Assembly (NCBI GenBank): GCA_029880025.1
Contig: JAOUPE010000001.1
Coordinates: 1-31,494 of the forward strand
Direction of reading: 5' to 3'
Length of the DNA: 31,494 nucleotides
Origin: a candidate division WOR-3 bacterium
GTDB lineage: Bacteria > Hydrothermota > Tepidihabitantia > Tepidihabitantales > JAOUPE01
Below, in pieces: positions 14,701 to 21,918 of this stretch. The notes beneath the pieces were generated by a model, which searched no databases, was not told where the DNA came from, and was given only the letters and a program-made list of their open reading frames with translations. Numbering within the stretch: position 1 is the stretch's first letter; the number at the start of each line of letters is the position of its first letter. Position numbers and translations under genes: made by a program.

Positions 14701-15172
14701 TTTCATAGCTGCCCGATAATAGAAAATAGTTAATTTCACCTTTCAGACAGCCGGATAGGGCGATTAGTCCATTATGTTGTTGGTTCAGCAAATCTTTATC
14801 CACTCGGGGTCGATAATAGAAGCCTTCGAGATAACCGAGCGAGACCAGTTTGATTAGATTCGCATAACCCTCGAGGTCTTTACTGAGCAGAGTAAGATGG
14901 AACGAGGATTCGGGTATTTGCGGATGAATCTTCTTTTCCCGCCGGTCAGTTGGGGCAACATAGACTTCAGCGCCGATGATTGGTTTCACCCCCACATCTT
15001 GTGCGGTCCGATAAAATTCGATTGCGCCAAATAGATTGCCGTGGTCGGTGATTGCTAACGCCGGCATGCGGAATGCCTCGGCTTGTCTCACTAAATCCTT
15101 AATCCGGGCTGACCCGTCCAGTAGACTGTATTCGGTATGGTTGTGCAGATGGATAAAATTTGATTCGCGCAC
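11708..15172 (-). CDS. dnaE: DNA polymerase III alpha subunit
   Basis: PHP domain HLHNHTEYSLLDG, ITDHG, NDCHY; GRGSAVGSL; catalytic PDVDVD and KMDILG; YGFNKSH; OB fold. GTG start. Confidence 0.97.
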   Translation of the reverse strand: MRESNFIHLHNHTEYSLLDGSARIKDLVRQAEAFRMPALAITDHGNLFGAIEFYRTAQDVGVKPIIGAEVYVAPTDRREKKIHPQIPESSFHLTLLSKDLEGYANLIKLVSLGYLEGFYYRPRVDKDLLNQQHNGLIALSGCLKGEINYFLLSGSYEKAREVAGTYQTIFGKENFYLELTQLGLKENDQSIKGLVRLSQELDVRLVATNDCHYLKKEDSLAHDVLLCIQTGKKLSDKVRLRFESQEVYFKSPEEMAQLFAELPEAITNTRAISDKCNLLLDDIGKKFYLPAYPRPDGFISDFEYLKHLAENGLKHRYHRVTPALEERLQYELSVIHKMGFAGYFLVVKDIIDFARSKKIAVGPGRGSAVGSLVLYSLGITDIDPLQYGLLFERFLTPERISLPDVDVDFADNRRDEVINYIRERYGQENVAQIITFGTMQARAAIRDVGRATDIPLPVVDRIAKLIPFGTPLAAALANSSELKTLLNTKPEYQELCEIAQKVEGLARHASIHASGVVIAPRPLMEFVPLYRSADEDICTQYDMTSLDAVGLLKMDILGLRTLTVIEETFELLHRQGVHIDRKTILLDDKKTYQLLQKAETVGVFQLESQGMRDILRQSVPDKIEDIIAVISLYRPGPLGNVGIGEFIKRKRGEAPVSYLHPSLREALEETYGIIVYQEQVMRIAGIIAGFSLSDADRLRRAMAKKVPEAMEAMRESFIEGTKKNRIKPELAQKIFDLIAPFAGYGFNKSHSAGYAYLSYLTAYLKANHPLQFLTAALSCEIGDQDKINKFVKEAKRMGIAILAPDINKSQHQFTIEENKIRFGLGGIKNLGQAVCEKIVEEQQKQGEYKTLFEFLRRTRSFTNRKAYESLIKAGACDSINPDRKFLLSRLDNELAMAGSERLEFAARQTSLFGMVKDASSKESESDRPEADTGPFTQNELLAYELDAYGFHFSLHPLENYRSEYERLATHDSSSLNNLEDYEPVNIGGVITAKKLRRDKKGNEYSVIQIEDFNGSVEVMVFNQLFQQTRQLLRVHECVMVKGTVRTRADGTHQIFADRVQPFNQIQCESKKDLKIKIPATSLEESLLERIKEELENYPGESEVYLELGEDDSRRKLVRLKNHKVNISSALINGLKELLGPDSIRLLAKSPAKRT

Positions 15173-15178
15173 TAACTG

Positions 15179-15207
15179 ATTAAATTAAATTCGGCTCGGT
15201 TTGTCAA
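15179..15207 (-). promoter_or_regulatory. Putative sigma70 promoter of dnaE (leaderless)
   Basis: TTGACA-17 nt-TTTAAT, 6 nt before the GTG. Confidence 0.6.
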
Positions 15208-15235
15208 GCAAAGAATTAAAAATTCGGTAATCCGC

Positions 15236-15264
15236 TTGACAACGATTTAGGATTTTATTAAGCT
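15236..15264 (+). promoter_or_regulatory. Putative sigma70 promoter of the ferritin/IscSU cluster
   Basis: TTGACA-17 nt-TAAGCT, divergent from the dnaE promoter. Confidence 0.55.
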
Positions 15265-15294
15265 TTTTAGAAAAGATTTTATAGATTGGGGTAT

Positions 15295-15780
15295 ATGATG
15301 TTTAAATCATTGAAAGAAGTGATTGCTTTTGCCATCGGTCGAGAGGCACAAGCCGCTAATTTTTACCAGGTCTTTGCGGCACGCTCAGAAAAACCGGCAA
15401 CCAAGTCGATGTTTGCCGAACTGGCAGCAGAGGAAAAGAAACACCAAGAATTACTCGAAAAGCTCACTCCAGAACAATTAAAAAACTTTCAACCAACCAA
15501 GCTTGAAGATTTGGGTCTCGATTCGATTCTTAAGGATACCCAATTCAGCCCAGATATGGAATATCCAGGAGCATTACGAATGGCGCTCAAACGGGAAACA
15601 GAATCAATTCGTCTTTATTCATTCTTTGCCGAGCAGTTGATGAAGGATAAGACCGAATGCCAAACATCGGTTGAGCGAAAGCAACTTAAGCAACTATTCG
15701 ATTTCTTAGTGGCACAGGAACAGCAACATAAGAATAAGCTTGAGAACGAATACGATGCGGTGGTGCTGAAGGATTATTAG
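15295..15780 (+). CDS. Ferritin-like (rubrerythrin-family) diiron protein 1
   Basis: E...EEKKH...E...EQQH pattern. Start ATG 15295 or 15298 (track uses TTG 15286). Confidence 0.85.
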   Translation: MMFKSLKEVIAFAIGREAQAANFYQVFAARSEKPATKSMFAELAAEEKKHQELLEKLTPEQLKNFQPTKLEDLGLDSILKDTQFSPDMEYPGALRMALKRETESIRLYSFFAEQLMKDKTECQTSVERKQLKQLFDFLVAQEQQHKNKLENEYDAVVLKDY

Positions 15781-15805
15781 CTACGTCTCATTTATTTAAG
15801 GAGGG

Positions 15806-16327
15806 ATGATGCAAAAGAGTTTTTCACCGGAAGATGTGATTAAACTCGCGCTACAGATTGAGCAGAGCGGCAAGACAGTCTACCAAACCGCGGCCGAGCA
15901 AGCCCAAACTCCAGAACTTACTGAGCTATTTCAATTTTTAGCCAGAGAAGAGAATGACCACATCAATAGTTTTCAAAAGATTTACGATGATTATAAACTC
16001 AGTGCCAAGACCCCTGGTGTTTCTAAACCCGAAGATATGTCTTATCTCGAAACTCTGGCGCAAAGTCAACTTTTTCAAGGAGCGGATAAAGCAATCAATG
16101 CGGTCAAGCAATTTAACGATCTGCTCCAATTGATAAATTTCGCTTTAGGTTTTGAACGCGATGCGATGCTCTTCTTTGTCAAATTATACCGGATGGTCGG
16201 TGAGAAGTATCGTAACTTAATTTCCAAACTAATCAAGGAAGAAGAGGCACATATCGTGAAATTGACCGAAATTCAATACAAGTTAATAAACCCGAAACCA
16301 GACAAAGAGATTTCAGGAAAGGAGTAA
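15806..16327 (+). CDS. Ferritin-like (rubrerythrin-family) diiron protein 2
   Basis: IEQSG...EENDH...FERDA...EEEAH. Confidence 0.85.
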   Translation: MMQKSFSPEDVIKLALQIEQSGKTVYQTAAEQAQTPELTELFQFLAREENDHINSFQKIYDDYKLSAKTPGVSKPEDMSYLETLAQSQLFQGADKAINAVKQFNDLLQLINFALGFERDAMLFFVKLYRMVGEKYRNLISKLIKEEEAHIVKLTEIQYKLINPKPDKEISGKE

Positions 16328-16329
16328 AT

Positions 16330-16821
16330 GTGGCAGTTTTCTATTCAGCCGTGGAAGTGATTGAAATGGCAATCAAAACCGAAGAAGCCGGTAAGACATT
16401 CTATGGCGGTGTGGCTAAGAATACGGATAACGCAAAATTAAAGGAGCTTTTTGCGTTTCTGGCTGGTGAGGAAGAGAAGCATAAGCAAGTTTTTTCTGAC
16501 CTTTATCAGACGATAAAAGAAAGTCCAGCCTCAGTCCCTTATGATTGGGCGGAGATGAGTCTTTATCTGAAAGCGATTACCGATTCGAAATTCTTCTTAG
16601 GAAAGGATAAGGCAATAAATTTAGTTAAAGAAGCCAAAACACCCGAACAAGCCTTAGATTTTGCTTTAGGTTTTGAACGCGATACCATGCTATTTTATAC
16701 CGAGATTATGACAATCGTTTCCGAAAAGAATCGAGACCTGATTGCGAAAATTGTGGCGCAGGAGAAGAGTCATATCCGTCAACTTCAGGCTTTAAAAGAA
16801 GGTCTGACCAAATCTGGTTAA
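16330..16821 (+). CDS. Ferritin-like (rubrerythrin-family) diiron protein 3
   Basis: TEEAG...EEEKH...FERDT...QEKSH; GTG start with AAGGAG RBS. Confidence 0.85.
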   Translation: MAVFYSAVEVIEMAIKTEEAGKTFYGGVAKNTDNAKLKELFAFLAGEEEKHKQVFSDLYQTIKESPASVPYDWAEMSLYLKAITDSKFFLGKDKAINLVKEAKTPEQALDFALGFERDTMLFYTEIMTIVSEKNRDLIAKIVAQEKSHIRQLQALKEGLTKSG

Positions 16822-16822
16822 A

Positions 16823-17335
16823 ATGGACAACTCAGTCATCAAAGCCTTAGCCACCGCTTTAGAAGCCGAAAAGACCGGTTTAATAAACTATCTTAATTTT
16901 GCTTACCAGATAAAAGATGAAACCGGCAAGAATATGTTCTTGCGCCTGGCAATGGATGAGTTTGACCATATGCGACTTTTGGAACAACAGGAATACAGTA
17001 TCCAGAAAGAAAAATGCTTTTTAGCGGTAACGATTGAACCATCGGCGATTGAAAAATTGGTGCCAAAACTTCAGGATAAAGATTTAAGAATCCGGGGTAA
17101 ACAAGGCATAGACCAACTCAGCGCCTTAAAAACCGCTTTAGAGTTGGAAGACCAGGCAATCAAATTCTATCGCGCACAGGCCCAGACCAGTACTGATTTG
17201 AATGCCAAAGCGATGTTTGAGCGGCTGGTCGATATGGAACAGGCACATTATGAATTATTGCAAGCCGAAATCGATGCGATCGAAAAGACCGGTTTCTGGT
17301 TCAATCTGCGGGAGTTCTCTTTAGAAATAGAATAA
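16823..17335 (+). CDS. Ferritin-like (rubrerythrin-family) diiron protein 4
   Basis: AEKTG...DEFDH...LEDQA...MEQAH. Confidence 0.85.
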   Translation: MDNSVIKALATALEAEKTGLINYLNFAYQIKDETGKNMFLRLAMDEFDHMRLLEQQEYSIQKEKCFLAVTIEPSAIEKLVPKLQDKDLRIRGKQGIDQLSALKTALELEDQAIKFYRAQAQTSTDLNAKAMFERLVDMEQAHYELLQAEIDAIEKTGFWFNLREFSLEIE

Positions 17336-17370
17336 ATAATGATTTAGTTATAGGTAAGGAGGCAAAGATT

Positions 17371-17865
17371 ATGATTGACCCAAAACTAACAAGTTTAGAA
17401 ATCTATGGTATCGCGGTAAAATCCGAAATTGATGCGATAAATGCTTATCAGAAGATAGCAAAAAAAGTAGAAAATCAGGATTTGAATAAGAAATTGCAAT
17501 TTTTAGAGGGAGAGGAGAAAAAACATCGAAAGTTATTAGAGAATCGTTATCGCCTAGAATTCCCGGATACGAAATTGATGCTGCCAAAGGATGGATTAGC
17601 GCCAAAACTCAATATTGCATTAGAGGAGGACACGCCACTTGCCCGGCTCTTTGAATTATCAATGGAGGCGGAAAAAGCATCCGAGGACTTTTATTCAGAA
17701 GCGGCAAAACGTGCCCAAGACCAAACCGGTAAGAATATGCTCTTTTACCTGAGCGGTATGGAACGTGGGCATTATTACTTGTTAAAATCTGAATACGACC
17801 TGATGCAGCAGTTTGATAAGTTTGAGAGTTATAAAAAATTCTCTTTGGAACATTTGGGACCATAA
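17371..17865 (+). CDS. Ferritin-like (rubrerythrin-family) diiron protein 5
   Basis: SEIDA...EEKKH...AEKAS...MERGH; stop overlaps the iscS start by 1 nt. Confidence 0.85.
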   Translation: MIDPKLTSLEIYGIAVKSEIDAINAYQKIAKKVENQDLNKKLQFLEGEEKKHRKLLENRYRLEFPDTKLMLPKDGLAPKLNIALEEDTPLARLFELSMEAEKASEDFYSEAAKRAQDQTGKNMLFYLSGMERGHYYLLKSEYDLMQQFDKFESYKKFSLEHLGP

Positions 17866-19076
17866 TGGCAAAAATCTATTTAGACCACGCCGCAGCCACC
17901 CCGCTCCATCCCGCAGTAAAAAAAGCGATGGAGCCTTATTTGACTGAATTATTTGGTAACCCCCAGAGCTTTCATTCTTTTGGTGCACCAGCAAAACAGG
18001 CAATCGATGATGCCAGAGCCAAAGTTGCCCAGTTGATTGAAGCCAAACCCGAGGAAATTTATTTTACCGCTTCCGGCGCAGAAAGCAATAATCTTGCAAT
18101 AAAAGGGATCGCTTGGGCTTACAAAGATAAAGGTAATCATATTATAACCTCAGCCATCGAACATTACTCGGTTCTCTACCCGGTAAAGACTTTGAGTAAA
18201 ATGGGTTATGAGATGACTACGATTCCGGTCGATAAATTTGGGATGGTCAATCCGGATGATGTGAAAAAGGCAATAAAGAAAGGGACGATTCTTATCTCGA
18301 TTATGCATGCCAACAATGAAATTGGCACGATCGAGCCAATAAAAGAAATCGGTCAGATTGCAAAAGAACATAAAATTCCTTTTCATTCGGATGGGGTAGC
18401 AACGGTTGGTTCAATCCCGGTCAATGTTTCAGAAATTGGAGTTGATGCCTTAAGCCTGGCAGGACATGCTTTCTATGGTCCAAAGGGCTCGGCAGCGCTC
18501 TATTTACGAAAAGGGACAAGAATTATGCCTTTGATTGAAGGCGGAATCCAAGAAGGCGGGAGAAGAGGTGGGACTGAAGATGTTGCCGCGATTGTCGGGT
18601 TGGGCAAAGCCTGTGAACTGGCACAAAAAGAGATACCGAAAAGAATTGAGCACAAACAGCGATTACGCGACCGGATAATTCGCGAATTGCCGACAAAAAT
18701 CGACCGGATTTACCTTACTGGTCATCCGGAAAAGAGACTGCCCGGACATGCCAGTTGCTGTATTGAATTCATTGAAGGCGAGGCAATGCTTCTATTCCTC
18801 GATGACGAAGGCATTGCTGCTGCCTCTGGCTCAGCCTGTACTTCTAAGGCACTCAAGGCTTCCCATGTCCTATTGGCAATCGGTATTGACCATGCTTTAG
18901 CCCAGGGCTCGATTGTCTTTACTTTAGGCAAAGACAATATTGATGCCGATATTGATCTGCTGCTAACGAAACTGCCGCCGATCGTTGAGCGGTTGCGCCA
19001 GATGTCGCCGTTATATGCTAAATTCAAGAAGGGCGAAAAGATTCAGGGAGGAGAAGAATGTATTCCGAAAAAGTGA
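17865..19076 (+). CDS. iscS: IscS/NifS-family protein lacking the PLP Schiff-base lysine
   Basis: YLDHAAATP, GNPQS, SGAESNN, HANNEIG, ASGSAC325TS. Canonical HK(F/I)YGPKG reads H-A202-FYGPKG (codon GCT at 18468-18470). Confidence 0.9.
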   Translation: MAKIYLDHAAATPLHPAVKKAMEPYLTELFGNPQSFHSFGAPAKQAIDDARAKVAQLIEAKPEEIYFTASGAESNNLAIKGIAWAYKDKGNHIITSAIEHYSVLYPVKTLSKMGYEMTTIPVDKFGMVNPDDVKKAIKKGTILISIMHANNEIGTIEPIKEIGQIAKEHKIPFHSDGVATVGSIPVNVSEIGVDALSLAGHAFYGPKGSAALYLRKGTRIMPLIEGGIQEGGRRGGTEDVAAIVGLGKACELAQKEIPKRIEHKQRLRDRIIRELPTKIDRIYLTGHPEKRLPGHASCCIEFIEGEAMLLFLDDEGIAAASGSACTSKALKASHVLLAIGIDHALAQGSIVFTLGKDNIDADIDLLLTKLPPIVERLRQMSPLYAKFKKGEKIQGGEECIPKK

Positions 19077-19453
19077 TGGAGCATTTCCGAAATCCGCGCA
19101 ATGTCGGTGAGATCGAAGATGCCGATGGCATTGGCGAGGTTGGCAATCCGGTTTGTGGTGATATGATGACTTTTTACATTAAGGTTGATAATGACCGGCT
19201 TACCGATGTGAAATTCAAAACTTTTGGCTGCGGTGCGGCAATTGCAGTTTCCAGTATGGTGAGTGAAATGGCAAAAGGGAAAACAATAGAAGAGGCACTC
19301 AAAATTACCAATCAGATGGTGGCACAGGAATTAGGCGGATTACCGTCCAATAAACTCCATTGCTCCAATCTTGGTGCGGACGCACTCCATAAAGCAATAG
19401 AAGATTACATGAATAAGAAAGGGGGACAAGGTGCAAAAGACCAAAAAGCCTAA
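19058..19453 (+). CDS. iscU: Fe-S cluster scaffold IscU/NifU-N
   Basis: YSEKVMEHF, GNPVCGD, FGCGAAIA, KLHCS; three conserved Cys plus Asp and His. Confidence 0.95.
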   Translation: MYSEKVMEHFRNPRNVGEIEDADGIGEVGNPVCGDMMTFYIKVDNDRLTDVKFKTFGCGAAIAVSSMVSEMAKGKTIEEALKITNQMVAQELGGLPSNKLHCSNLGADALHKAIEDYMNKKGGQGAKDQKA

Positions 19454-19604
19454 AAAATGCCGCTGCCCTTTCTGCGATGAACCACTGCTGCCAGAAGCTA
19501 CCTTCTGTCAATTATGCAAGGTCGAATTGATTTTTTGTAAAAAGTGCGGTGAGGCGATCCCTAAGAATGCTGATAAATGTCCAAAATGTGGCACGAAGAG
19601 ATGA
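19431..19604 (+). CDS. 57-aa double zinc-ribbon protein (not in the ORF track)
   Basis: Translated by hand from GTG 19431 (RBS AAGGGGG): MQKTKKPKKCRCPFCDEPLLPEATFCQLCKVELIFCKKCGEAIPKNADKCPKCGTKR; four CxxC pairs. Confidence 0.8.
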   Translation: MQKTKKPKKCRCPFCDEPLLPEATFCQLCKVELIFCKKCGEAIPKNADKCPKCGTKR

Positions 19605-19612
19605 GTAGATTC

Positions 19613-19697
19613 AACCACGAAAAACACGAAAGCCACCAAAGAAAAACAGAGCAAGATTCTTGCCTCTTGCTTCGTAAAGATTTAGTGCTTTCGGGTT
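19613..19697. repeat. Long imperfect intergenic palindrome
   Basis: AACCACGAAA-AACACGAAA... pairs with ...TTTAGTGC-TTTCGGGTT; inner stem AGAGCAAG/CTTGCCTCT. Confidence 0.55.
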
Positions 19698-19709
19698 AAC
19701 TTTGTTCTG

Positions 19710-20186
19710 ATGAAAGATAAAATGACGCTCATCCTTTTCAGTGGTGATTTGGATAAAGCCATTGCCGGCTTCAACCTTGCCACTGCTGCAGCGTCAATGG
19801 GAATAGAAGTTGTCATATTTTTTACCTTCTGGGGTTTGAATATAATCCGTAAAGAAAAGAAGGTGTCTAGAACTAAAGGACTCAAGAAGAAATTATTTGG
19901 TATAATTAATAAAGGCGGTGTTAATAATCTTCCTCTTTCCCGTTTCCACATGTCAGGCATCGGAACTAAGATGATGAAACAATTAATGAAAGAAATGAAA
20001 TTTCCACCGCTAGCCGAATTAATGAAACTTGCCAAGAATCTGGGCGTTAAATTTGTTGCCTGTACAACCACTATGGGCATGATGGGTTTGACTAAAGATG
20101 ATTTGATTCCAGAAGTCGATGCCTATGCCGGTGCCGCCACTTACCTTGCTAACGCCGGCCAATCCAGGATAAATCTTTTTCTATGA
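19710..20186 (+). CDS. DsrE2/DsrE-DsrF-DsrH-like sulfur carrier / peroxiredoxin-like protein
   Basis: LILFSGDLDKA, FFTFWGL, LPLSRFHMSGIG, VACTTTMGMMG, AGAATYL. Confidence 0.85.
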   Translation: MKDKMTLILFSGDLDKAIAGFNLATAAASMGIEVVIFFTFWGLNIIRKEKKVSRTKGLKKKLFGIINKGGVNNLPLSRFHMSGIGTKMMKQLMKEMKFPPLAELMKLAKNLGVKFVACTTTMGMMGLTKDDLIPEVDAYAGAATYLANAGQSRINLFL

Positions 20187-20207
20187 TTATTATTAAATTG
20201 GATAAAT

Positions 20208-20447
20208 ATGATTAAAGCAAATGCCGAATTGGATTGTCTTGGACTTTATTGTCCAATGCCGATTGCCAAAACCGTGGAGAAAATGAAAGAACTCAAGCCA
20301 GGTGAAGTTTTGGAAATCTTAGCCGATGACGAAGGAATTAAAAGTGATATGCCAGCCTGGTGTGAGGCAACTGGTAATGAGTTTTTGGCAATTGAAGATG
20401 AAAATGGTAAATTTCGAATCTATATTAGAAAAAAGGAGGCTAAATGA
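20208..20447 (+). CDS. tusA: TusA/SirA-family sulfur carrier
   Basis: [11 protein letters not shown] (CPxP), [16 protein letters not shown]. Confidence 0.9.
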
Positions 20448-20641
20448 ATAAATGGGAATGCACAGTCTGTGGTTATATTTATAACCCAGAAAAAGGTGAC
20501 CCGGACAATAACATTCAGCCGGGAACGCCGTTTGAAGAACTCCCAAATGATTGGGTATGCCCGGAATGTGGTGCCGGTAAAAGTGAATTTAAGCCATACG
20601 GACGGGGTGAGCCAGAACCACCAAAATCGACCGATGAGTAA
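20444..20641 (+). CDS. Rubredoxin with short C-terminal tail
   Basis: [10 protein letters not shown]...GDP...[18 protein letters not shown]. Confidence 0.95.
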
Positions 20642-20686
20642 GTATAAAAATACGAATTTAGTTTAAAATGAAAGGGGGTGAGAAAT

Positions 20687-20860
20687 ATGGCAAAGAAACT
20701 AGCAAAAAAGAAGATAACCAAAAAAGCCAAGAAAAGAGTTCCTAAGATTAAGGGACTGGTTTATCTTTGCCGAACTTGTGGTATGGAAGTTGTTGTCAGT
20801 AGAGCCGGAGCTGGTATCACCAATCTAGTCTGTTGCGACCAGGTGATGGAAAAGAAATGA
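20687..20860 (+). CDS. Desulforedoxin-like FeS4 peptide with Lys-rich N-terminus
   Basis: YLCRTCG...LVCCDQVM (CxxC...CC); start ATG 20687 after AGGGGGTG. Confidence 0.75.
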   Translation: MAKKLAKKKITKKAKKRVPKIKGLVYLCRTCGMEVVVSRAGAGITNLVCCDQVMEKK

Positions 20861-20867
20861 AGCCGGA

Positions 20868-20927
20868 GATACGCACCGATAAAGCAGAATAGATGAGCGC
20901 CCGATTCGGATGCCAATCTGTATTTAT
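20868..20927. repeat. Imperfect intergenic palindrome
   Basis: ATAAAGCAGA/TCTGTATTTAT and GATACGCACCGA/TCGGATGCCAATC are complementary. Confidence 0.4.
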
Positions 20928-20941
20928 AAAAAGGAGGTGAA

Positions 20942-21232
20942 ATGGCAATTGTCGATATTAGTGTTGTGCCGGTCGGTACCGAAACTACCAGTGTCAGTAA
21001 ATTTGTCCGTGAAGCGGTAGCGGTAATAAAAAAGAGTGGCTTAAAATTCCAGCTCTCCTCGATGGGGACTGCAATCGAAGGTGATTTGGATAAAATCTTT
21101 AAGACCATTCAGGAAATCCACGAGGTTTGCTTTGCTAAGGGAGCAAAACGACTGCTTACCACCATCAAGATTGACGACCGGAAAGATAAAAAACAAACAA
21201 TGGAGGACAAAATTAAAGCGGCTCTGGGTTGA
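20942..21232 (+). CDS. MTH1187/YkoF-family thiamine-binding protein
   Basis: VDISVVPVGT...SVSKFV, MGTAIEGD, IKIDDRKDK; AGGAGG RBS. Confidence 0.88.
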   Translation: MAIVDISVVPVGTETTSVSKFVREAVAVIKKSGLKFQLSSMGTAIEGDLDKIFKTIQEIHEVCFAKGAKRLLTTIKIDDRKDKKQTMEDKIKAALG

Positions 21233-21246
21233 TTAACTCCAGTGCC

Positions 21247-21284
21247 GCTTGGCTTAAAAATATCCTAAAGCAGGTTTAAGCAGC
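21247..21284. terminator. Possible hairpin between convergent genes
   Basis: GCTTGGCTTAAA...TTTAAGCAGC imperfect stem; no clear U-tract. Confidence 0.3.
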
Positions 21285-21315
21285 TTATAACCAACTAAAT
21301 CTAATTTCATCAATT

Positions 21316-21918
21316 TTACTTCTTACCTTCGGTTGGTTGAGTCGGGGCTTTAGATTTAACTGGAAATGCGATTTCGGTCTTGAGTGATTCAGCCGGAACC
21401 TGGTCCGGTGAATTTAGATAGAATTCATGAGCCGGACCGACAATTTCATAATTGTTATTCATAACCCACTCGGCTAATTTCTGATAGGTTGGACCAACTT
21501 TGTCGTACGGTCCAATATAAAGGGTTGCCGCAACCTGAGCTGGTCCAAATTTCTTAACTTTTACCATTTTGTCACCTTTGGTCTTGGCTGGAACTGGAAC
21601 GCATATCTCATATTTTGTGCTTTCTGGCTTCACTTTCATTGGGTCGTCATAATAGACTCCGAACGGCGCACCAGTTGGTTTAACCTTGTTTTTACCAAGC
21701 CAGGTGAATAATTCCATCATCGGTTTGCCCATTTCAGCATAAGGTCCGATTTTACTCATCGATGCTACATACATCGAATCTATGGTTTTTACCGCCGCCG
21801 TGAACTGAGGCTGCTCTGGCGTCGTCGGTTTTTGTACTGGTTGGGTCTTTTGTTCACCGCAACCTACCATCATTAGTGTAATTAGTACAATAACTACACA
21901 GTTATAAATTTTGTCCAT
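21316..21918 (-). CDS. Predicted lipoprotein with GyrI-like small-molecule-binding domain
   Basis: Signal peptide with lipobox MVG-C; GPYAEMG, PFGVYYDDP, YEICVPV, GPYDKVGPTY, EFYLNSP, TEIAFPV. Confidence 0.8.
   Translation of the reverse strand: MDKIYNCVVIVLITLMMVGCGEQKTQPVQKPTTPEQPQFTAAVKTIDSMYVASMSKIGPYAEMGKPMMELFTWLGKNKVKPTGAPFGVYYDDPMKVKPESTKYEICVPVPAKTKGDKMVKVKKFGPAQVAATLYIGPYDKVGPTYQKLAEWVMNNNYEIVGPAHEFYLNSPDQVPAESLKTEIAFPVKSKAPTQPTEGKK

Follow-up and report, generated by a model that had tools for sequence, protein, structure and literature searches.

We analysed a 31,494-nt stretch of DNA (the window, in whose positions all features are numbered), which is contig C262 of the metagenome-assembled genome (MAG) of a candidate division WOR-3 bacterium (G000; 2.2 Mb, 439 contigs, 82% complete). 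Thirteen open reading frames (ORFs) on the + strand, spanning 15286-21232 and named by Pfam and NCBIfam, place five erythrin-type diiron proteins (fer1-fer5) next to an IscS-like protein without the pyridoxal phosphate (PLP) lysine, hereafter IscS*, the scaffold IscU, and a series of sulfur carriers and small iron proteins. We consider it fairly probable that this block is a housekeeping MIS/ISC-type Fe-S assembly operon built around a non-catalytic IscS paralogue, not around a cysteine desulfurase. The genes are as follows.

15286..15780, + strand: fer1, erythrin-type diiron four-helix protein, 164 aa (PF02915, 6.9e-13; alternative ATG at 15295)
15806..16327, + strand: fer2, erythrin-type, 173 aa (PF02915, 2.9e-12)
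16330..16821, + strand: fer3, erythrin-type, 163 aa (PF02915, 4.2e-12)
16823..17335, + strand: fer4, erythrin-type, 170 aa (PF02915, 3.4e-11)
17371..17865, + strand: fer5, erythrin-type, 164 aa (PF02915, 1.7e-14; base 17865 is common to the fer5 stop and the iscS* start)
17865..19076, + strand: iscS*, IscS/NifS-fold protein without the PLP lysine, 403 aa (PF00266, 1e-72, residues 4-348)
19058..19453, + strand: iscU, Fe-S scaffold, 131 aa (PF01592, 1e-50; 19-nt overlap with iscS*)
19431..19604, + strand: znr, double zinc ribbon, 57 aa (PF12773 and PF13240)
19710..20186, + strand: dsrE2-like sulfur carrier, 158 aa, single cysteine Cys118 (PF13686, 3.3e-52)
20208..20447, + strand: tusA, sulfur carrier, 79 aa, CPxP cysteine at Cys15 (PF01206, 1.1e-26)
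20444..20641, + strand: rubredoxin (rub), 65 aa (PF00301, 2.8e-25; 4-nt overlap with tusA)
20678..20860, + strand: desulforedoxin-type Fe(Cys)4 peptide (dx), 60 aa (PF06397, 2.2e-7; alternative ATG at 20687)
20942..21232, + strand: MTH1187/YkoF-family protein (mth), 96 aa, the last gene of the block (TIGR00106, 121.1 bits against a cut-off of 54.7)

The spacings between successive genes are 25, 2, 1, 35, -1, -19, -23, 105, 21, -4, 36 (45 from the ATG at 20687) and 81 nt; six junctions overlap or measure at most 2 nt, and the widest gaps are 105, 81 and 36-45 nt. These positions agree with the 13 co-oriented genes and the spacings described in an earlier note on this DNA, and Pfam and NCBIfam returned the same names for the genes as that note had given. 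The genes hscA, hscB, iscA, fdx and iscR, which define a canonical ISC operon, are all absent beside iscS*-iscU, and no hscAB, iscA, fdx, iscR or suf gene was found among the remaining genes of the window, again as the note had stated.

The case for a non-catalytic IscS begins with its active site. We aligned IscS* with E. coli IscS (NC_000913.3) and 104 homologues, 75 of them Lys-less and 29 Lys-bearing. Where E. coli has the lysine motif SGHKIYGPKG, the window reads GHAFYGPKG, and Ala202 aligns with Lys206, which bears out the note's description of a Lys-less IscS. Likewise, Ala179 aligns with Gln183 and Val351 with Arg354, and the window has Ala at E. coli position 203, with His205 retained; Gln183, Ser203, His205 and Arg354 are what we take to be PLP or substrate contacts in the E. 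coli IscS structure. The loop cysteine Cys325 is kept, as are His100 and Asp176 (E. coli Cys328, His104 and Asp180). The same pattern runs through the Lys-less set: lysine is absent from the Lys206 position in 75/75 sequences, being replaced by Q, S, T, A, P, G, E or D, Gln183 has become Ala in 70/75 and Arg354 V, L, I or T in 75/75, and Cys328, His104 and Asp180 are conserved in all 75. The Lys-bearing homologues have Lys206 and Arg354 in 29/29 cases and Gln183 in 28/29. Other signatures of the Lys-less clade are G74S, A106S, N290T, N302S, S312A, P335A and H350Q.

IscS* is 48-62% identical to solved desulfurases and scores below the cut-offs of the corresponding NCBIfam models (TIGR03402 NifS, 507.6 bits against 530.75; TIGR02006 IscS, 395.8 against 643.2). 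It is 84% identical to its orthologue in G001, a genome from a sister genus, and the mean column identity in the clade alignment is 67%; such strong conservation indicates that this is not a decaying gene. From the lost residues we infer that IscS* would bind no PLP and would have no desulfurase activity, and we read it as a conserved and presumably functional protein that is unable to do PLP chemistry. In a maximum-likelihood tree, all 74 bacterial Lys-less sequences fell on one side of a branch with an SH-aLRT support of 90. The tree needs two state changes, the second of which is the sole archaeal Asp-type sequence (L082), placed on a long branch among Lys-bearing sequences.

At L120 (G035:C4), from family f2 of the bacterium's order, a Lys-bearing IscS (SGHKFYGPKG, 54% identical to the window IscS*) adjoins iscU at a place where its relatives are Lys-less; it may have reverted, have replaced the Lys-less gene or represent another paralogue. 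In some Dehalococcoidia and other Chloroflexota, a Lys-bearing IscS lies at most 3 kb upstream of the Lys-less cassette (L012:5400-6614, L014:1003-2166); the one in L012 has its own IscU, and active and presumably inactive paralogues are there neighbours.

The partners encoded downstream of IscS* retain their functional residues. IscU keeps Cys33, Asp35, Cys58, His101 and Cys102, and its Lys99 matches E. coli Lys103, which is required for IscS binding (PMC2854127); at the site of the E. coli HscA-binding motif LPPVK it reads LPSNK. The nine cysteines of the zinc ribbon are invariant in 19/19 sequences, and the ribbon is fused to the IscU C-terminus in eight loci, and also in the Aminicenantes-type operons described below, which ties the zinc ribbon to IscU. 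The DsrE2-like protein keeps Cys118 in 18/18 sequences and scores 177 bits with PF13686 (cut-off 25), but only 84.4 with the NCBIfam DsrE2 equivalog, under its cut-off of 210. TusA keeps Cys15 in 53/53 sequences (Pfam, 92.9 bits against 28.6), and the cluster TusA is the only TusA match in G000, G001 and G013. The rubredoxin scores 88.5 bits against a cut-off of 23, with its four cysteines conserved in 15-16 of 16 sequences. The desulforedoxin-type peptide, with a CRTC...CC motif and an orthologue in G001, exceeds the PF06397 cut-off (30.8 against 23) and falls below that of the NCBIfam domain model (22.3 against 36.05). The N-terminal tails of the desulforedoxin-type peptide (MAKKLAKKKITKKAKKR..., 20678-20760) and of the zinc ribbon (MQKTKKPKK..., 19431-19460) are rich in Lys, which is unusual for small redox proteins.

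The arrangement of the block is conserved. In G001 (same family, 94% complete), fer2-fer3-fer4-fer5-iscS*-iscU-znr-dsrE2-tusA-rub-dx-mth stand in the same order at 59-94% identity, with Thr at the lysine site of IscS*. Its flanks differ: upstream of the G001 block lie a gene for a protein with a tail of the type IX secretion system (T9SS) type and a clean terminator, whereas the window has dnaE on the opposite strand. The same order within different flanks indicates that the block moved or was kept as a unit, and that fer1 is extra in this genome. T9SS-type sorting tails also end large secreted proteins in relatives (for example ...GIYFIKL...; L090:1-4710, L091:8690-9982 and L092:4761-6917), and these tails suggest a place for the order in the FCB group of phyla.

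Compared over 40 relatives in the order, the block turns out to be modular. In family f3, iscS*-iscU-znr comes after three fer genes, of which two were seen in G007 and G011, and rubredoxin follows in G003 and G011; in family f2, the zinc ribbon that goes with iscS*-iscU is either separate or a fusion; and several genomes of family f5 have iscS*-dsrE2-tusA. In G006 of family f2 (L092:8738-9648, with the same at that place in L095, L102 and L108), iscS*-iscU-znr is followed by genes for a glutaredoxin-like protein (CGWC), a ferredoxin:thioredoxin-reductase-like protein and MTH1187, and MTH1187 occurs at the same distance in other f2 loci. The glutaredoxin-like and reductase-like proteins were named by eye from their motifs; the latter has CPC...CxC motifs and a C-terminal rubredoxin-like CxxC...CxxC tail. 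Judging from these motifs, a thiol/persulfide reductase module appears to stand in place of DsrE2-TusA-rubredoxin in family f2, and this seeming replacement of TusA/DsrE2 would fit a reductive sulfur step in the system.

A wider neighbourhood survey, of the kind that the earlier note had called for, covered 80 loci that the IscS* protein retrieved from contigs representing one genome per species and the first 20 stretches from relatives, and counted genes within 3.5 kb on the same strand around 74 Lys-less and 31 Lys-bearing IscS genes. TusA was a neighbour of 51/74 Lys-less against 1/31 Lys-bearing genes, the zinc ribbon of 32/74 against 2/31, DsrE2 of 21/74 against 1/31, an erythrin of 19/74 against 0/31, rubredoxin of 12/74 against 0/31 and MTH1187 of 11/74 against 0/31; since the Lys-less proteins form one clade, these counts are phylogenetically non-independent and describe a family's habit. 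In the pooled loci, one or more of these six neighbours accompanied 92/95 IscS* genes against 2/33 Lys-bearing ones, the pooled erythrin count being inflated by seven loci picked via fer5; both exceptional Lys-bearing loci adjoin an IscS* cassette. Dehalococcoidia typically have iscS*-iscU-znr-dsrE2-tusA, and Nitrospirota tusA-iscS*-iscU. The accessory genes thus go with Lys-less and not with Lys-bearing IscS, and the survey, together with the 12 of 13 genes that are collinear in G001, upholds the note's expectation of a conserved gene order and of a conserved unit around Lys-less IscS and IscU.

These data also bear on whether the 13 genes share a function at all, or whether several small and separate operons, for stress defence, the Fe-S scaffold, a sulfur relay and MTH1187, happen to stand in a row. 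The gaps of 105 and 81 nt could accommodate internal promoters, only part of the modules is present in each of families f2 to f5, and the promoter and terminator scans came out at chance level. Such a run would nevertheless have to account for 12 collinear genes in a different genus with different flanks, for the six junctions that overlap or measure at most 2 nt, and for modules that recur beside IscS* in other lineages while none recurs beside Lys-bearing IscS. We therefore regard a chance run as very improbable.

The non-coding sequence of the block offered two candidate elements.

15236..15264, + strand: promoter-like site read from the sequence, TTGACA (15236-15241), 17-nt spacer, TAAGCT (15259-15264)
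19651..19663, + strand: small GC hairpin in the 105-nt znr-dsrE2 gap, at chance level in the scan

The promoter-like site falls in the 113-nt divergent region between dnaE and fer1, and a similar TTGACA-N17-TAAACT precedes the first fer gene in G001. The single promoter that the note had predicted here does have a perfect TTGACA and a 17-nt spacer, but TAAGCT matches only three of six consensus positions and the site is unlisted in the consensus scan, which leaves the evidence weak. In that scan for promoters and terminators, counts were at the level of shuffled sequence, and no + strand promoter was listed ahead of fer1. The GC hairpin may act as a weak terminator or mark a site of processing. 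An Rfam scan of 14900-21600, with E up to 0.1, gave no match and thus no known riboswitch or leader. The dnaE/fer1 region also contains a direct repeat (15187-15243) whose copies, AAATTCGG-N7-TTGTCAA and AAATTCGG-N8-TTGACAA, lie 33 nt apart; the second copy contains the -35-like TTGACA, and the repeat could be an operator.

The new part of the picture concerns the erythrins. All five fer proteins have the full E / ExxH / E / ExxH diiron ligand set (in fer1 the ExxH motifs are at residues 50 and 145), and no rubredoxin domain or CxxC was found in any of them; this combination marks them as erythrin-type, not as rubrerythrins or ferritins. Ordinary rubrerythrins were ruled out by the lack of a C-terminal rubredoxin-like Fe(Cys)4 domain, and ferritins because PF00210 matches only fer2, where its 23.4 bits stay under the cut-off of 24.5. 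Against the fer5 profile, bacterioferritins reach no better than E ~1e-3. The least conserved of the five is fer1, which has no counterpart in G001 and its closest relative in L010, at 39% identity. fer2 is a family-level duplicate of fer3: the two are 41% identical, fer2 groups in the fer3 orthogroup, and outside this genome its orthologue is found only in G001.

Positions relative to iscS* were followed in a tree of 51 ferritin-like proteins from the fetched loci. In most cases, fer3-type genes lie about 1 kb upstream of iscS*; fer4-type genes are found about 0.5 kb away on the same side, and fer5-type genes stand directly against iscS* or overlap it. The order fer3-fer4-fer5 before iscS* is seen in families f1, f3 and f4 as well as in L010. 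The fer4 orthogroup has eight rows and an SH-aLRT of 99, and Dehalococcoidia loci have fer4-related and fer3-related genes beside the cassette. In family f4, fer3-fer4-fer5-iscS* stand together with iscU-znr on another contig; that the trio stays with iscS* apart from iscU ties the erythrins to IscS* itself. A prediction of the IscS*, IscU and fer5 complex returned a score of 0.00, which says nothing for or against binding.

The fer5 family extends well beyond the order. A fer5 profile search gave 647 protein clusters at E <=1e-10, and fer5 matched the P. furiosus hypothetical protein PDB 2FZF at 5.6e-39. Seven fer5-family genes were sampled, chosen only for long contigs and dominated by one lineage, and 7/7 shared an operon with IscU and a Gln-type Lys-less IscS. 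One of the seven loci resembles the window in having four fer genes together with iscS*, iscU, a zinc ribbon and DsrE2. The other six hold an Aminicenantes-type operon, nfu-iscS*-iscU::zinc ribbon-(tusA)-nadA-rubrerythrin-fer5-like, one record being named Candidatus Aminicenantes. This operon (L133, L135, L136, L139, L140 and L141) comes after pyruvate:ferredoxin oxidoreductase genes, and in 5/6 loci nth and a radical SAM gene are next after it; it joins the same Fe-S core to Fe-S client enzymes. The C-terminus of fer5 is an invariant ...HxGP in our alignment (A3). The whole tail, ...(F/W)..(E/H).HxGP-COOH (residues 156-164), is conserved across phyla (A3; L133, L135, L138-L141), and fer4 ends in a related FSLEIE; the fer5 tail might serve for docking or contribute a metal ligand.

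As to what the erythrins do, the trio fer3-fer4-fer5 may be an Fe(II) donor or buffer, a tentative assignment made by analogy with the di-iron RIC/YtfE proteins. It may equally tentatively be taken as a guard against O2/H2O2, or it may be both. Further PF02915 matches lie elsewhere in all five relatives' genomes that we searched; the top one in G001, G004 and G006 is a frame of ~195 aa with 108-124 bits, as expected for a canonical rubrerythrin. The fer trio is thus probably not the cell's only peroxide enzyme.

The standing of the operon in the cell can be gauged from its relatives. No SUFBD match was found in G001, G003 and G006 (94-98% complete), and each has a single NifU_N match, the one beside IscS*. 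With no other IscU-type scaffold and no SufB/D found in these three relatives, the operon would be the main Fe-S scaffold system, and it is probably a housekeeping one.

Several observations weigh against the view of a housekeeping operon in which a non-catalytic IscS* is served by dedicated sulfur carriers, redox proteins and erythrins, in addition to the non-independence of the survey counts. At the TusA-contact residues of E. coli IscS, the window has A45, Q49 and D52, which is only a partial match; position 49 is acidic in 34/51 TusA-linked IscS* proteins against 4/29 Lys-bearing ones. Of the five relatives' genomes searched for TusA, it was not found in G006, G003 and G004 (families f2, f3 and f4; 96-98% complete), all of which have IscS*. 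A TusA/DsrE2 sulfur relay is therefore not general in the order, and the note's proposal that TusA/DsrE2 supply IscS* with sulfur fails as a general rule; the pair is an optional add-on dedicated to IscS*, not a general sulfur route. Rubredoxin is linked with erythrins in 11 loci and with TusA in 11 loci. The fer5-like gene of the Aminicenantes-type operons follows a canonical rubrerythrin, which suits a peroxide/O2 role as well as one in iron supply. Second or third IscS matches, mostly at 42-49% identity, occur in 31/40 genomes of the order, and the five second copies that we read (5/5) are Lys-bearing: SAHKIHGPKG and SGSACAS in G001 (L091), and SGHK(I/L)H(G/A)PKG in L126-L128. These copies stand apart from IscS* and IscU, with neighbourhoods confirmed for G001, G004 and G012. 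Finally, this MAG itself contains a lysine-bearing fragment of a class V aminotransferase (AGAAKWLLGPQG, AAKW), cut by the contig end (G000:C258:2092-2892, L002), and a second, divergent IscU/SufU-like gene (G000:C363:4260-4679, - strand; 91 bits with NifU_N, three Cys and Asp kept). The fragment scores low against every desulfurase model and may represent the active desulfurase of the cell, or else a PLP enzyme unrelated to it; the C363 gene is absent from the four relatives' genomes searched.

Because relatives carry a Lys-bearing IscS, cysteine may still be the sulfur source. An unlinked Lys-bearing IscS would then make the persulfide, TusA/DsrE2, where present, or direct contact would deliver it to IscS*-IscU, and the operon would be a scaffold and delivery module, not a desulfurase-independent system. 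We take this to be a serious possibility, though one we would not bet on. It is favoured by the extra IscS matches in 31 of the 40 genomes, with HK and SGSAC in the copies read, and by the loading of TusA by E. coli IscS (PMC2854127). On the other side, the Lys-bearing second copies read are not adjacent to IscU, TusA or IscS*, no Lys-bearing second copy was found in this MAG, which at 82% completeness lacks 18% of marker genes, and the f2, f3 and f4 genomes searched gave no TusA. The note's term "desulfurase-independent" holds for IscS* itself, which has no lysine, and does not clearly extend to the cell, given the unlinked Lys-bearing IscS of relatives. The search for a second desulfurase that it had suggested thus yielded Lys-bearing copies in relatives and, in this MAG, only the unassignable C258 fragment.

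A different account takes free sediment sulfide as the sulfur source. IscS* would be a structural partner and would provide the fourth IscU ligand, the erythrins, rubredoxin and desulforedoxin-type peptide would be a split rubrerythrin-type O2/H2O2 defence for nascent clusters, and TusA/DsrE2 would serve thio-cofactor or tRNA chemistry. DNA of the organism occurs in sediment (and soil) metagenome runs, MIS and SMS reportedly can use sulfide (PMC13066941), erythrins co-occur in 11 of the 16 rubredoxin-bearing IscS* loci, and a canonical rubrerythrin adjoins the fer5-like gene in the Aminicenantes-type operons. We find this account doubtful all the same. TusA is tied to IscS* (51/74 against 1/31) and is the only TusA in the genomes where it was found; the three erythrin orthogroups keep a fixed order, with a fer5-type gene adjoining iscS* even where iscU is elsewhere; and each genome searched has extra rubrerythrin-family genes, so that a stress enzyme would not need such linkage.

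Overall, we provide a putative scheme for a housekeeping operon around a non-catalytic IscS*. IscS*2-IscU2 would be the assembly platform, with the IscS* dimer holding IscU and the double zinc ribbon acting as an IscU appendage. The loop Cys325 would serve as a cluster ligand, a persulfide relay or both, as in the A. fulgidus (IscS-IscU)2 structure. Where present, the DsrE2-like protein and TusA could feed persulfide to Cys325 or to IscU, in the reverse of the E. coli IscS-to-TusA transfer; TusA docks on E. coli IscS with its cysteine ~4 Å from Cys328 (PMC2854127), and DsrE-type proteins and TusA exchange sulfur (PMC11094781). The sulfur itself would come from an unlinked Lys-bearing IscS or from environmental reduced sulfur.

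Ferredoxin-type electrons are required to turn persulfide into sulfide in ISC. In the operon, rubredoxin and the desulforedoxin-type peptide may give these electrons, taking the part of ferredoxin in canonical ISC, and may also keep the diiron sites reduced. The fer3-fer4-fer5 erythrins would act on IscS* itself, and delivery or buffering of Fe(II) is in our view slightly likelier than a role confined to guarding against O2/H2O2; the di-iron four-helix protein YtfE, for comparison, binds IscS and IscU and donates iron (PMC8117158, PMC12720416). We speculate, with low confidence in the scheme as a whole, that fer3-fer4-fer5 load Fe(II) on IscS*-IscU and are kept reduced by rubredoxin/desulforedoxin, that TusA/DsrE2 load the IscS* cysteine, and that IscS* is a dead hub.

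The iron donor for ISC-type assembly has long been debated, and the operon supplies concrete candidates for both the iron-donor and the electron-donor steps. If the erythrins do load Fe(II), this branch of the MIS system would gain a genetically defined iron donor and electron donor, both of which are open for ISC/MIS-type assembly. More broadly, the Lys-less branch is almost never alone; persulfide carriers, an IscU-attached zinc ribbon, Fe(Cys)4 carriers and a di-iron trio make up a parts list for anaerobes that possibly build Fe-S clusters without this IscS as desulfurase. The lineages concerned are Dehalococcoidia and other Chloroflexota, Nitrospirota, Aminicenantes, Planctomycetota (including Scalindua) and the order studied here. 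The new observation is that in several phylum-level lineages IscS* has a syntenic partner in the fer5 family, together with fer3 and fer4, and the window holds the fullest version of the operon. The note knew of no description of this combination. Parts of it have precedents, since a Lys-less IscS/IscU is known from A. fulgidus and a Lys-less IscS1 cluster has been mentioned for M. acetivorans (PMC7585200); the full operon was in no paper that we found. In the open-access literature, we found no paper on an operon of TusA, DsrE2, a cysteine desulfurase and IscU, and none on ferritin-like proteins beside IscS/IscU.

The core has its closest published relatives in IscS2-IscU of A. fulgidus and isc1 of M. 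acetivorans. IscS2 of A. fulgidus (PDB 4EB5, 4EB7 and 4HVK; D199K variant 4R5F) likewise lacks the PLP lysine, keeps the loop cysteine and has iscU adjacent; the window IscS* matches IscS2 at E = 6.6e-113. The Lys-less A. fulgidus IscS is reportedly inactive in desulfuration and contributes a cysteine as ligand of the [2Fe-2S] cluster on IscU (PMC7585200, PMC13066941). It differs in having Asp at the lysine site, and no erythrin, rubredoxin, zinc-ribbon or MTH1187 partners are described for it (PMC7585200, PMC13066941). In M. acetivorans isc1 (IscS1 MA0808, IscU1 MA0807), a Lys-less IscS1 is clustered with four genes of unknown function (PMC7585200). That system is archaeal and uncharacterised, as recombinant IscS1 was insoluble, and no ferritin-like array or rubredoxin is mentioned for it.

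For the erythrins, the likeness to RIC/YtfE is one of function. YtfE/RIC proteins bind IscS/IscU or SufS/SufU/SufD and promote cluster assembly (PMC8117158, PMC12720416), but they are hemerythrin-like, with mostly His ligands, whereas the fer proteins are of the erythrin type with E/ExxH ligands. In fold, the fer proteins resemble rubrerythrin, MbfA and 2FZF, sharing PF02915 and all six diiron ligands, and their best NCBIfam match is the MbfA N-terminal domain, below its cut-off. Rubrerythrin adds a C-terminal rubredoxin-like domain, and MbfA, an iron exporter, a VIT1 membrane domain; the fer proteins have neither. The P. furiosus 2FZF, a near homologue of fer5 with a solved structure, is a hypothetical protein with no assigned function.

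Similar to E. coli IscS-TusA (PDB 3LVJ) and to the DsrE/TusA relays of sulfur oxidisers, the block conserves the TusA CPxP cysteine and the single DsrE2 cysteine. Relative to the E. coli pair, the direction of transfer would be reversed, as IscS* would be unable to make persulfide; relative to the relays of sulfur oxidisers, there are no dsr or shdr genes in the window, and the DsrE2-like protein is below the NCBIfam equivalog cut-off. With MIS (MisS-MisU), finally, the operon shares a two-gene core of an IscS-like and an IscU-like protein without HscAB, IscA, Fdx and IscR, found in anaerobes. A 2026 review calls MIS-type pairs the least studied Fe-S assembly system, with no accessory components and with electron donors unknown (PMC13066941). 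In contrast to MIS as described, without carriers or additional components, the Lys-less branch is accompanied by such genes in 92/95 loci.

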